A DNA stretch of 5,914 nucleotides from a virus, in the IMG/VR virus record IMGVR_UViG_3300029566_000105, positions 1 through 5,914 of that record; one strand, written 5' to 3'. Positions within the stretch are counted from its first letter, which is position 1. The number at the start of each line of letters is the position of its first letter. Positions 1,657-5,914 of this stretch are shown piece after piece. Under the pieces are notes generated by a model. It had not been told where the DNA came from. It did not search any database and was given only the letters and a program-made list of their open reading frames with translations. The translations under genes and the position numbers were made by a program.

Positions 1657-3285
1657 TTACAGCTTATACAGGCCAGGTACGCTGTACAACGGCATACGCC
1701 GTACGGTCTTGTTCGCTACTCTGATTGCCCCAAAGAATTGAGGCTCGTCCTGCACAATCAGTGTCCGTGCAATCTCTTCTTTACCTTCGCTCATCCATTC
1801 CTGTGAGAGTGTTGGTACGGCTTTGTAGTTGTCTGCATAGTGCCAAAAGTCCAGCGTTCCGGTTGCGTTGCTTCTCATGAGGCCGCTTACTCGGTTTGGT
1901 TTCATGCGATAGTCCGCCCATGCTTCCTGATAGCCAAACGTCTCTTCGTCCGTTGCTGTACCGGTTAGCATGATTTCCTTTTTCTTTACAGGCTGTTCGC
2001 CTAAGTTGGCAAACTGCGGTACATAATAGTCTAGCCTGTCTTTTCTGGACCAGAACCGCTCAAGTCCCTGTTGGTACGTTCGAGTGTGTCGCACGCACAT
2101 GACGCCAATGACGAATCCGTGCTCCTCAAAGCTCTTTGTGAAGGAGCTTTCGTTGATGGGCGTTACTGACATCGCGCCAGTTTCACCGATGGGTGTGTCA
2201 TTGCCGGTTTGCTGGCCGGATGTCTGTACAATTTGGTTCATGTTGACGTGATAGCGTCCGCCGCCTAGATACTCCGGAATCTGTACGGTTTTGTCACTGA
2301 TAGTTACATCCCACAGTGCCTGTATCTGCTCACGGTATCGGCTGCCGCCTCGTGCCATTGCTTCGTAGTACTGCTGTACTGCAATTGCGTTTCTTAGCTC
2401 GTTGACGGTTGTTGCTGTTACGTTTGACAGGTCTGCACCTAAGAACTTCATTGCGTGCTGCTCTTGGGTCGAGTTTCCGTATATTGCCATGACGTTTTGA
2501 TAGTTTTCTATACTGCCGCTGGCGAGGTTTAACCCAATTCCAGTTGCAGTTTGCTTTGTCAGTTCTGCGTTATCGAACATTTTTGTGGGTGCATTGCCCG
2601 TCATTGGTACGGTTACGTCTGGTCCACGCTGAGGATAAGGCAGACAGCTTGTGAAGTAGTCGTGGAACTTATTTACAGGAAGGCACTCTCCTCCTGTGAT
2701 TGCGTTTTTGAGCACCTCATCGATTGTCTGAATCTCTTTTTGCGCATAGATTTCGTTATCATTGCCTGTCTTTAATACGGCTGCATTTTCTACGTTTTGG
2801 TCTCTGAAAAATTCATTCCAGATTTTTACATAAGCTCTGATGGGGAGAGCATTGATTCTAAACGTTTGCTTAATTTTGGTTGGCACACCCATGTAGTCGA
2901 GGATGCTTTTTTCTTTAGGTTCTCCGTTTCCGCTTCCTGTTATTTTGATTTGTGGTACGCTGTATGTTTTGGTAGGCGCCCACGGTGTTTCTTCTACTTC
3001 GCCCATGAAGTTTTTGAAGCTGTCCCACAGAATGCGGTTTGGACAGTAGAAGTAGTATAGGTCGATGTACGCGTCGTCCATGACTGGATATTTCGGCGTT
3101 GTCATACGGATAATTGCGCTGGTATTTATCTGGAATGTATCGCCCGGCAGCACTTCATCTACGAAGAACGGGATAAGTTTGCCGCTGTCGAATGTGGTTA
3201 AGATTGTCTGGTCGCGGTTGAAGCGCGTTCGGCTTGCGTGCATTTCCGGTACGTTTAGGAAATGTCTTTCATTGTTCCTGTTCAT
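1657..3285 (-). CDS. Major capsid protein VP1 (F-like), 542 aa
   Basis: The N-terminus RFNRDQTILTTFDSGKLIPFFVDEVLPGDTFQIN matches the conserved gokushovirus VP1 N-terminal signature (HFDLS...G.L.P....EV.PGD.F). The size is typical. An SD AAGGGAG lies 9 nt upstream of the ATG at 3285. Confidence 0.93.
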   Translation of the reverse strand: MNRNNERHFLNVPEMHASRTRFNRDQTILTTFDSGKLIPFFVDEVLPGDTFQINTSAIIRMTTPKYPVMDDAYIDLYYFYCPNRILWDSFKNFMGEVEETPWAPTKTYSVPQIKITGSGNGEPKEKSILDYMGVPTKIKQTFRINALPIRAYVKIWNEFFRDQNVENAAVLKTGNDNEIYAQKEIQTIDEVLKNAITGGECLPVNKFHDYFTSCLPYPQRGPDVTVPMTGNAPTKMFDNAELTKQTATGIGLNLASGSIENYQNVMAIYGNSTQEQHAMKFLGADLSNVTATTVNELRNAIAVQQYYEAMARGGSRYREQIQALWDVTISDKTVQIPEYLGGGRYHVNMNQIVQTSGQQTGNDTPIGETGAMSVTPINESSFTKSFEEHGFVIGVMCVRHTRTYQQGLERFWSRKDRLDYYVPQFANLGEQPVKKKEIMLTGTATDEETFGYQEAWADYRMKPNRVSGLMRSNATGTLDFWHYADNYKAVPTLSQEWMSEGKEEIARTLIVQDEPQFFGAIRVANKTVRRMPLYSVPGLYKL

Positions 3286-5000: not shown

Positions 5001-5026
5001 GGTTTTCACCTCTTCTGCGACTTAAT

Positions 5027-5063
5027 TATCTTAATTATATTGCTTGTTAATAGGCTTTTCCAA
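5027..5063 (-). promoter_or_regulatory. Candidate sigma70-type promoter on the minus strand: -35 TTGGAA (5063-5058), 18-nt spacer, -10 TATAAT (5039-5034)
   Basis: It has a perfect -10 hexamer and a 4/6 -35 hexamer with the correct spacing. It sits about 35 nt upstream of the first gene of the gene block and downstream of the VP4 terminator. Confidence 0.35.
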
Positions 5064-5119
5064 TGTTTTCTGATGATTGTTATAATTTTGTAACCTTTTT
5101 TCTTGCTTCTTTGTTTTGA

Positions 5120-5160
5120 AAGGCGCTTTAGCGCCTTGCCGTGCGTAGCGAATGCGTAGC
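5120..5160. promoter_or_regulatory. Operator-like element: a perfect hairpin AAGGCGC-TTTA-GCGCCTT (5120-5137), then the direct repeat TGCGTAGC-gaa-TGCGTAGC (5142-5160) with 11-bp phasing
   Basis: These were seen directly in the sequence. They are located about 60-100 bp upstream of the candidate -35. Confidence 0.3.
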
Positions 5161-5192
5161 TCGGCCAATCCATTCCTTTCTCGCTTGCGAGT

Positions 5193-5304
5193 TTTCAACA
5201 CTTTCAACACTTTCAACAGGTTTTCAACAAAATGTTGCACAATGATTTTCGTCATTTTGACGAACTTTCAACAATTCAACAAGTTTTCAACAAATCTTTC
5301 AACA
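5193..5304 (+). repeat. Iteron-like array of nine direct copies of TTTCAACA (one is ATTCAACA)
   Basis: Copies are at 5193, 5202, 5211, 5222, 5266, 5274, 5285 and 5297, with a partial copy at 5351, spaced 8-12 bp apart. The array is in two blocks interrupted by the 5248-5264 inverted repeat. The region is non-coding. Confidence 0.8.
5248..5264. repeat. Inverted repeat TTCGTCA-ttt-TGACGAA. Each arm matches the TGNCGAA heptamer (Spo0A 0A-box-like).
   Basis: It is a perfect 7-bp arm palindrome placed in the middle of the iteron array. Confidence 0.5.
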
Positions 5305-5357
5305 TTGTTTTTTGCTTGTTTTTAACGCATTATCGTTTTAAATTTATACTTTTCAAC

Positions 5358-5366
5358 TTTTCCACA
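5358..5366 (+). promoter_or_regulatory. DnaA-box-like 9-mer TTTTCCACA (fits TTWTNCACA)
   Basis: It is an exact match to the relaxed DnaA-box consensus. It lies directly after the last partial iteron. Confidence 0.3.
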
Positions 5367-5370
5367 GCCT

Positions 5371-5385
5371 CTACTACTACTACTA
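5371..5385. repeat. (CTA)5 trinucleotide microsatellite
   Basis: The sequence is CTACTACTACTACTA. Confidence 0.9.
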
Positions 5386-5394
5386 CAACAAGTT

Positions 5395-5456
5395 AATATT
5401 ATAGCGCGCGTGCGCGCGTGCGCGCTATCGCGCGTGTGCGCACGCGTGAATATTAT
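5395..5456. repeat. A 46-bp GC-rich alternating purine-pyrimidine tract. It has two near-palindromes, at 5401-5428 and 5431-5446, and is bracketed by AATATTAT direct repeats (5395-5402 and 5449-5456). It may form Z-DNA or a cruciform, and is a candidate complementary-strand origin.
   Basis: The alternating stretches are GCGCGCGTGCGCGCGTGCGCGC (22 nt of strict Pu/Py) and CGCGCGTGTGCGCACGCGTG (20 nt). The 28-nt element ATAGCGCGCGTGCGCGCGTGCGCGCTAT is palindromic except for two G/T positions. Confidence 0.75.
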
Positions 5457-5500
5457 TATTTGATGGACTGAATAGTGTGATACATGGAGTCTTTAGACGA

Positions 5501-5536
5501 TAAAAGCCCAGTACCTTACTTGATAGGTACTGGGCT
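5501..5536 (-). terminator. Rho-independent terminator after VP4. The stem arms are 5505-5516 and 5525-5536.
   Basis: On the coding strand a perfect 12-bp stem AGCCCAGUACCU / AGGUACUGGGCU with an 8-nt loop is followed by UUUAUCGUCU. It lies 12 nt after the VP4 stop. Confidence 0.55.
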
Positions 5537-5547
5537 AGGTGACACCG

Positions 5548-5914
5548 TTAGAGTGTCCCCGTCTTCTTTGTTTGCTTTTTGACTATTCTTTCTTTTGTCT
5601 TTAAGTCCTCTGCATAGTCTGTTTCTTCATATTTTAGCCTGTTCTGTTCAATTATTGCCTTTTGCCGGTTTTTTTTGATTCTCCACAGTCTTTCAGGGTT
5701 TTCTGCTTCCATCATTTTTTCATAATAACGCGGTATTTGCGCTCTTTTTCCGTTGGTGCACTGAATATAGCCCTGTTTCCAGATTTCCTCTTTGTGCTTT
5801 TGGTAATATTCATCTCCTAGTCCCGGCTTTAAGCTCATGCATGCAAAAGGTTTTTGCTGTCCTAGTTCGTAGTATGCGTTGGCTTTTTTTCCGTCTATCT
5901 CGTACATTTTTTTT
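5548..5914 (-). CDS. Replication initiation protein VP4, C-terminal part. The stop is at 5548-5550. Positions 5816-5914 duplicate 1-99.
   Basis: The ORF-track protein MYEIDGKKANAYYELGQQKPF...KKTGTL continues the frame of the 1-752 segment across the circular junction. The 99-nt identity of the window ends proves they are contiguous. Confidence 0.9.
   Translation of the reverse strand, partial: KKMYEIDGKKANAYYELGQQKPFACMSLKPGLGDEYYQKHKEEIWKQGYIQCTNGKRAQIPRYYEKMMEAENPERLWRIKKNRQKAIIEQNRLKYEETDYAEDLKTKERIVKKQTKKTGTL
5816..5914. repeat. A 99-nt exact duplicate of positions 1-99. It is the linearisation overlap of a circular genome with a 5,815-nt unit length.
   Basis: My base-by-base comparison found 1-99 identical to 5816-5914. 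The VP4 ORF reads through the junction in frame. Confidence 0.9.

Follow-up and report, generated by a model that had tools for sequence, protein, structure and literature searches.

A conserved strand-specific CG/TG hairpin in the replication region of gokushoviruses

Known replication signals and the gokushovirus noncoding region

Single-strand signals of rolling-circle replicons are already known as a kind. At the single-strand origins (sso) of rolling-circle plasmids and at the minus-strand origins of phiX174, G4 and M13, host enzymes start the complementary strand. The plasmid origins are 150-250 nt long, and those of the ssoA type are marked by a CS-6 sequence (TAGCGT/A) in the terminal loop and by an RSB sequence. 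The viral-strand origin of phiX174 covers 30 bp and reads CAACTTG^ATATTAATAACACTATAGACCAC, with 18 nt from the G of CTTG to the downstream GACCAC; in the phiX174 record, the A that follows CTTG is annotated as the point where viral-strand synthesis starts. The phiX-like phages package their coding strand. In the literature that we searched, microvirus genes are all treated as lying on the viral strand and the signals considered here are not discussed. Searches of the full text returned no description of a gokushovirus origin hairpin, of a CG hairpin or of antisense packaging, and the family of hairpins reported here, with its alternating CG/TG make-up and its wide distribution among gokushoviruses, appears to be undescribed in that literature.

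The window, i.e. the whole stretch of 5,914 nucleotides analysed here (IMG/VR record IMGVR_UViG_3300029566_000105), is a complete gokushovirus genome. Its first 99 bases recur at its end, which makes it a circular genome of 5815 nt, and megablast groups it with uncultured gut Gokushovirinae. All genes recognisable by ORF reconstruction and Pfam lie on the - strand: the major capsid protein VP1 (3285-1657; Pfam Phage_F, E = 9e-139), VP2 (1618-749), the scaffold protein VP3 (3731-3282), VP5 (3909-3670), an M15 peptidase (4776-4387) and the replication protein VP4 (Rep), which was reconstructed as an ORF running on the circle from 752 to 1 and then from 5815 to 5548 (Pfam REP_ORF2-G2P, E = 1.5e-16). 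The 3' part of VP4 (5548-5815) ends with a stop codon 2 nt from a GACACC motif that belongs to the origin-like hairpin described below.

The sole long noncoding region (about 5010 to 5547) is bounded on one side by the end of VP4 and on the other by a promoter-like site that precedes the first small ORF. It is conserved across many gut gokushoviruses, and the CG/TG block sits within it. Read on the + strand, it also harbors about ten TTTCAACA / TTTTCCACA repeats in the same orientation (5190-5366), a (CTA)n ...CTACAACAAGTT motif directly 5' of the CG/TG hairpin (5362-5394), which is near-invariant in relatives, and a spacer, TTTGATGGACTGAATAGTGTGATACATGGAGTC (5459-5490), found conserved in an alignment of the regions extracted from relatives. 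The 5' end of this spacer holds the CTACTTGATAGAC motif of the relatives a second time, in degenerate form. The orientation of the repeats with respect to the genes and to both hairpins varies between lineages, and in the KT264784/KX513876 lineage the (CTA)n ...CTACAACAAGTT motif is found on the opposite strand relative to the genes. Read on the - strand, this motif includes the AACTTG which, together with ATATTAA in the left flank of the block, had been pointed out in the first-pass annotation as reminiscent of the phiX174 origin. We rejected AACTTG as an origin or the remnant of one, because lineages differ in how it is oriented with respect to the genes and the other signals, and a much better phiX174-like origin is present on the + strand at 5505-5546.

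This second element is a perfect 12-bp inverted repeat (stems 5505-5516 and 5525-5536) closed by the loop TACTTGAT (5517-5524) and followed 3' by AGGT and then by GACACC at 5541-5546, all on the + strand. Across relatives, changes in one arm of the stem are compensated in the other, and the loop TACTTGAT stays constant. The same design (stem, ..CTTGAT.. loop, stem, (N)TGACAC) is present in all lineages examined, including the cultured phages Chp1, Chp2 and SpV4 and 12 genomes of uncultured gokushoviruses from at least 10 VP1 clusters. Whatever the length of the stem, the spacing between the G of CTTG and GAC(A/C)AC is maintained: of 15 genomes, ten have 18 nt, four (including the window) have 19 nt and one has 17 nt. 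The hairpin therefore carries what defines a microvirus viral-strand origin, CTTG^AT with GAC(C/A)AC about 18 nt downstream, and shares with the 30-bp phiX174 origin both the CTTGAT nick motif and GAC(A/C)AC 18-19 nt downstream. It differs in that the AT-rich spacer of phiX174 is replaced in gokushoviruses by the 3' arm of the stem, that the nick motif is placed in a hairpin loop and that, in the window, the motif and the genes are on opposite strands. We infer that 5505-5546 is a putative viral-strand origin; on the basis of homology with CAACTTG^ATA...GACCAC of phiX174, a nick is predicted between G5522 and A5523 of the + strand. Searching with a 17-mer taken from the origin loop produced 20 matches dispersed over unrelated bacteria, as chance alone could give.

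A single hairpin with pairing selected on the + strand

The CG/TG block is a 46-nt sequence, AGCGCGCGTGCGCGCGTGCGCGCTATCGCGCGTGTGCGCACGCGTG, at 5403-5448, located between two copies of AATATTAT (5395-5402 and 5449-5456), exactly as first annotated. It consists of two stretches, 22 and 20 nt long, in which purines and pyrimidines alternate perfectly, with TAT between them, and contains 14 CpG, 5 TG and 1 CA dinucleotides. It was also correctly described as a GC island in AT-rich DNA, the local GC content being 0.52 at the block and 0.27-0.30 in its flanks. The longest run of alternation in the genome, 22 nt, lies above the mean of 13.1 (maximum 23) obtained in 1000 dinucleotide-preserving shuffles, and the highest number of CpG in any 46-nt segment is 14 where the shuffles have a mean of 7.8 and a maximum of 12. 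The block is thus real and non-random.

On the + strand the minimum-energy fold is a single uninterrupted 20-bp stem (left arm 5405-5424, loop CTAT 5425-5428, right arm 5429-5448) made of 15 G-C pairs, 1 T-A pair and 4 G·T wobbles, with a free energy of -27.5 kcal/mol (z = -3.7), a stability matched by none of 200 shuffles. The two hairpins of 28 and 16 nt proposed earlier were not recovered, since the best fold is this one stem; the corresponding model, in which each arm folds on itself, was rejected because it has no covariation and does no better than shuffled or slid controls. Nor was the coding strand, for which the structure had been proposed, the better folding one: the - strand reaches -21.6 kcal/mol (z = -1.1) and its stem is broken by C·A mismatches. 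Over the whole region 5100-5560 the two strands fold almost equally (-77.3 vs -74.9 kcal/mol), so that the strand signal comes from the CG hairpin and not from the region overall. In the + strand fold the left AATATTAT flank (5395-5402) pairs with the right one (5449-5456), and these flanks are an AT extension of the base of the stem in this genome; they look like a direct repeat because AATATT is its own reverse complement. The left flank is not conserved in relatives, and at the position of the right flank these have GAATTAGA, GATAAAGT, GAATAAAG or other sequences.

Covariation was analysed in a gap-free alignment of 41 distinct homologous elements with 18 bp per arm. Under the single-hairpin model 99.3% of the pairs are standard and both sides have changed in 11 of the 18 pairs, values that were reached by none of 500 shuffles. 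When the register was slid by 2, pairing was still 90-93%, with just 4 double-changed pairs. These data show one long hairpin of about 20 bp whose pairing is kept by compensatory changes, and they bear out the proposal that the block forms a hairpin in single-stranded nucleic acid. Its loops across relatives are CTAT, CTT, TTT, CTA, ATTA and similar.

Within the 18-bp core, the pairs counted on the + strand are 588 Watson-Crick, 145 G·T, 3 A·C and 2 other. Standard pairing is accordingly 99.3% on the + strand as against 80.1% on the other strand, and the + strand hairpin is the more stable one in 66 of 68 distinct relatives (means of -25.8 vs -20.4 kcal/mol). The mutational input was estimated from synonymous changes reconstructed in 56 VP4 genes: per site, changes leading to G·T on the + strand occur at a rate of 7.7 and those leading to A·C at 4.4, which gives a ratio of about 1.7, subject to the imperfect polarisation of changes by parsimony. 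The excess of G·T over A·C is 48 to 1, and selection is therefore required to account for it. A·C pairs on the + strand are purged by selection, whereas the equivalent mismatch on the - strand is tolerated. Selection on pairing thus acts on the + strand, antisense to the genes, which implies that the hairpin works in a single-stranded molecule of + polarity. Overall, the evidence supports a true, selected hairpin acting in single-stranded nucleic acid; the block is a conserved, strand-specific DNA hairpin in the gokushovirus replication region.

Distribution, orientation and the packaged strand

Relatives were collected as 11 GenBank genomes and 80 IMG/VR relatives of VP4. Among the 77 loci of close relatives having both anchor motifs, about 75 carry the CG/TG block at the same site; the exceptions are a near-complete deletion (L068) and a truncation (L051). 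The presence of the block at the same site indicates that it is ancestral. The repeat AATATTAT is absent as a flank in the relatives whose flanks were read, and block-bearing relatives have unrelated right flanks. A degenerate pattern was then used to scan IMG/VR for the breadth of the element, giving at least 120 loci, with gokushovirus calls made by tblastn; gokushovirus contigs account for 63 of the 120 among the pattern matches listed. Together with the reference genomes, these 63 contigs form 19 VP1 clusters at 65% identity, of which at least 16 carry the hairpin, and the VP1 identity of pattern-matched contigs to reference proteins goes down to about 38%. The hairpin is a widespread gokushovirus element, found in well over 100 independent assemblies. 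The search pattern fixed the central 25 nt of the IMG/VR matches; the alternating stems reach well past these, up to 32 bp. The persistence of strictly alternating CG/TG over deep divergence, which is partly an ascertainment effect of the search pattern, suggests a constraint beyond that of any stable hairpin.

The surroundings of the element are variable. In the KT264784/KX513876 lineage, the TTTCAACA repeat module is inverted and has moved to the VP2-VP4 spacer; in the KT264784 lineage the CG hairpin occurs in about 15 of 71 genomes, on either side of the repeats, and is missing from the other 56 or so, the flanks of which are otherwise near-identical. The hairpin is therefore dispensable in this lineage, and we regard it as an accessory, exchangeable module and not as the core origin. 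In a divergent environmental lineage with genomes of 4.4-4.7 kb, the block falls inside VP4, in frame at the 3' end of the gene, and its translation reads ...RARARNAHARAKSKSKSV.

The position of the CG hairpin relative to the origin hairpin also changes between lineages. In the window some 75 nt separate the block from the origin hairpin. Most gut lineages have the CG hairpin 38-180 nt 5' of the origin hairpin, the environmental lineage has it about 1 kb 5' and the KT264784 lineage 69 nt 3'. Among T-rich genomes, it is 313-477 nt 3' in three and about 1.2 kb 5' in a fourth (L269). The strand, by comparison, is coupled: among the matches listed, the origin hairpin is on the wobble-tolerant strand of the CG hairpin in all 49 contigs that have both, one of them (L214) having an additional origin-hairpin match on the opposite strand. 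Among the 63 gokushovirus contigs listed, the wobble-tolerant strand is the noncoding one in 55 and the coding one in 8, and it is the T-rich strand in 62; L199 is an exception to the skew rule. These counts come from lineages that are not independent, and a single ancient inversion may lie behind much of the correlation.

Four lines of evidence favour the + strand as the packaged one. The origin hairpin is on the + strand, and the CG hairpin is selected to pair on the + strand. The composition of four-fold degenerate sites on the coding strand, for which phiX-like phages served as control, is A.44 / T.12 in the window and T.50-.64 / A.05-.12 in phiX-like phages; it is T.70 / A.16 in Chp1, T.51 / A.26 in Chp2 and T.65 / A.28 in SpV4, so that the window mirrors all of these phages. 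In the 56 VP4 genes, coding-strand G>A exceeds C>T per site (7.7 vs 4.4) and C>A exceeds G>T (107 vs 25). Seen from the noncoding strand, C>T and G>T are thus the changes in excess, the pattern that damage to exposed single-stranded DNA should leave; both the four-fold-site and the substitution signals could also arise from selection for A-ending codons. Taken together, these sequence features give about an even chance that the lineage of the window nicks, displaces and packages the + strand, complementary to its mRNAs, and would then be a 'negative-sense' microvirus. With the same evenly balanced confidence, the reading may extend to most uncultured gut and environmental gokushoviruses with an A-rich coding strand, the CG/TG hairpin being their putative complementary-strand origin. 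The cultured phage phiMH2K is ambiguous: its coding strand is A-rich and bears a hairpin with a CTACTTGTTG loop, and an adjacent small hairpin with a CTTGAG loop, followed by TGAG, is found on the other strand.

Possible role of the hairpin and its significance

Its location in a microvirus replication-origin region makes a signal for the start of the complementary strand a reasonable guess for the CG hairpin, and we regard this as the most plausible role of a candidate element. By analogy with known systems, we tentatively propose, at somewhat less than even confidence, an accessory single-strand hairpin on the nicked and probably packaged strand that would signal where the complementary strand starts. 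VP4 would nick the + strand, which would be displaced and packaged. In the packaged single-stranded circle the GC stem would stay duplex while the host single-strand binding protein coats the remaining DNA, and the host primosome, primase or RNA polymerase may use it as a landmark for starting the complementary strand.

The fixed strand, free position and optional presence of the hairpin are what would make its behaviour sso-like. As in the plasmid sso/ssi elements, a noncoding hairpin would be bound to one strand, its position relative to the nick site is flexible, and it is modular, exchangeable and dispensable within the same region as the double-strand origin. At about 45 nt it is shorter and simpler than a plasmid sso, with one 20-bp GC stem instead of an imperfect palindrome, and it has no RSB or CS-6 motifs and no promoter mimic; TAGCGT (CS-6) was found in none of the hairpin loops of relatives. 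The likeness to the sites of PriA in phiX174, primase in G4 and RNA polymerase in M13/f1 is one of general layout. It would be that of a hairpin lying between genes on the strand that a small circular single-stranded DNA phage packages, and like these sites the CG hairpin should resist being coated with single-strand binding protein. It differs from them in being almost purely alternating CG/TG and in being missing from many relatives; it also differs from the M13/f1 minus-strand origin, as a promoter scan identified no -35/-10 pair within 5403-5448 on either strand. That many relatives live without the hairpin speaks against a priming role, and if it does prime, something else can substitute for it.

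An unlikely explanation, although it accommodates part of this pattern, is that the single-strand hairpin has a non-priming role, such as aiding compaction or packaging or protecting against nucleases, or that it is a tolerated, self-propagating (CG)n slippage palindrome. The polymorphism for presence and absence and the partial deletions in L068, L051 and L105 are typical of unstable palindromes, the element moves together with other GC-rich hairpin cassettes, and its alternating dinucleotides would fit an origin by slippage. Pure tolerance, however, would not give compensatory changes together with the 48 to 1 bias of G·T over A·C, which point to purifying selection on one strand, and the element is kept in about 75 of the 77 members of the lineage of the window.

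Quite improbable, in our estimation, is an element of the replicative form that flips to Z-DNA or extrudes as a cruciform under negative supercoiling, which would take up supercoils and tune origin melting or transcription. The block is alternating, CpG-rich and palindromic like (CG)n/(TG)n Z-DNA tracts and cruciform palindromes; an uninterrupted alternating CG-rich purine/pyrimidine run of at least 12 bp defines a Z-DNA tract, and the two runs of 20-22 bp are a classical Z-forming sequence, in a palindrome that could extrude and that has the origin hairpin about 75 nt away. Of the earlier description as a Z-DNA element, the alternation is thus real and Z-DNA is physically possible, but selection for Z-DNA found no support. 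In a duplex, TG is CA on the other strand, and a cruciform needs both hairpins, so that neither predicts the 48 to 1 bias. For Z-DNA it is immaterial whether an A in one arm meets a T in the opposite arm, yet such compensation is seen in a specific register, and the 3-nt loops of most relatives break the phase of the alternation. In addition, the environmental lineage has the element 1 kb from its origin hairpin. Register-specific covariation and strand asymmetry are instead the signature of a single-strand hairpin.

We consider it very unlikely that the element acts as RNA, whether as an intrinsic terminator, a structured 3' end or an antisense RNA. A consensus scan does find it terminator-like on the + strand of the window, where the 20-bp stem is followed by AATATTATTA, but of 66 relatives only 2 have a T-rich tail after the stem on this strand; 16 of the 66 pass the count on the - strand, with tails that, where listed, are alternating TA and not T runs. 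The intrinsic terminator was rejected, as a GC stem with a T run is not kept and the tails are not conserved in relatives. The favoured strand is antisense to all genes here and sense in the T-rich lineages, leaving no fixed relation to transcription, and an Rfam search gave no family match, its sub-threshold hit to MIR834 (15.9 bits for a cut-off of 200) being due to chance.

It is still less probable that the block codes for an arginine-rich peptide, either a J/VP8-like DNA-binding protein or a tail of VP4. In its favour, the block of the divergent 4.4-4.7 kb lineage lies in the reading frame of VP4 at its 3' end and encodes RARARNAHARA ahead of a conserved basic KSKSKS tail, and (CG)n of the CA type is free of stops in every frame. 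No - strand ORF of at least 20 aa covers the block in the window, where the longest stop-to-stop stretch read from the sequence spans 17 codons and has neither an ATG nor a ribosome-binding site; moreover, palindrome, covariation and strand asymmetry are conserved in coding and noncoding contexts alike. Finally, a recent small insertion with an 8-bp target-site duplication (as suggested at first from the exact AATATTAT on both sides in the window), a Xer/dif-type attachment site or an assembly artefact is barely credible, since the block occupies the same site in close relatives and is found in very distant gokushoviruses while its flanks are unconserved, no dif-like site lies within 3 mismatches of the E. 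coli dif core, a VP1 protein-based scan of 185,579 reference genomes found no prophage copy, and the many independent assemblies that carry the element exclude an artefact.

Gokushoviruses are among the commonest phages of the human gut and of water, and their cis-acting replication signals are almost unstudied. Two conserved signals of their noncoding region are defined here, a phiX174-like origin hairpin and an accessory CG/TG hairpin under strand-specific selection, both of which are concrete targets for replicons, infectious clones and host-range experiments. In this phage the replication signals are on the strand opposite its genes, an orientation that makes the textbook assumption that microviruses package the mRNA-sense strand directly testable. 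If the antisense strand is packaged, the orientation of genomes in databases, strand-aware quantification of viromes and models of mutational bias for single-stranded DNA phages would all need revision.

Genome form and strand composition

The first 99 nt of the window are repeated exactly at its end (1-99 and 5816-5914), and the sequence therefore represents a complete, circularly permuted genome of 5815 nt. The coding strand shows an extreme excess of A over T (38% versus 18% overall), as seen also at four-fold sites (.44 versus.12; whole window, with the major capsid protein gene VP1 at 1657-3285, - strand). This skew is the mirror image of that of phiX-like phages, Chp1, Chp2 and SpV4.

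Hairpins and repeats of the intergenic region

A conserved hairpin with the loop TACTTGAT and GACACC downstream (5505-5546, +) has the motif spacing of the phiX174 viral-strand origin. Hairpins of this type are common to every gokushovirus lineage looked at, and in the window the hairpin strand is opposite to the gene strand. It is preceded by a conserved spacer of the TTTGATAGACTGAATAGACTGATACATGG type (5459-5490, +); in many relatives this spacer begins by repeating the origin-loop motif, CTACTTGATAGAC, exactly.

Further 5', a perfect 8-bp hairpin, AAGGCGCT-TT-AGCGCCTT, is followed by two direct copies of TGCGTAGC (5120-5160, +); this arrangement is kept in relatives, and in KX513876 it also occurs downstream of the Rep gene VP4, inverted relative to the genes. 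About ten copies of the repeat TTTCAACA follow in one orientation (5190-5366, +), one of them forming the small palindrome CAACAAAATGTTG (5224-5236). The repeat reads TTTTCCACA in some copies and relatives, a form that resembles a relaxed DnaA box. In the second gut lineage (KT264784/KX513876), the TTTCAACA module is inverted and found at another location. Finally, a (CTA)n microsatellite leads into an invariant CTACAACAAGTTAATAT (5362-5400, +), whose complement, ACTTGTTGTAG, resembles the loop of an intergenic hairpin in phiMH2K (CCTACTTGTTGTAAG).

The CG hairpin in relatives

GGCAGCCCC..GGGGCG and AAGGGGTTGAC..GTCAACCCCTT are examples of extra GC-rich hairpin cassettes that adjoin the CG/TG hairpin (5405-5448, +) in relatives (L019-L027, L056, L059, L097, L112 and others), where they are gained or lost jointly with it. 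In L097, direct repeats of AAATCAAAA lie on both sides of the entire cassette. L027 and L120 belong to a single contig of 10711 nt (IMGVR_UViG_3300045988_004182) carrying VP4 genes from both gut lineages. Two gokushoviruses have probably been fused in this assembly across the repeat region that they have in common, as a chimera or a concatenate.

In a divergent 4.4-4.7 kb IMG/VR lineage (L200, L205, L220, L221, L243, L274, L283 and other contigs), the CG/TG hairpin is part of the VP4 coding sequence, within its 3' end, and is translated as ...RARARNAHARAKSKSKSV; the bases that form the DNA hairpin thus also encode a basic tail of the protein.

A possible spacer for replication signals

The first small ORF (5000-4782) is preceded by a promoter-like TTGGAA-18-TATAAT (5034-5063, -), suggesting that 5075-5547 is an untranscribed spacer given over to replication signals.
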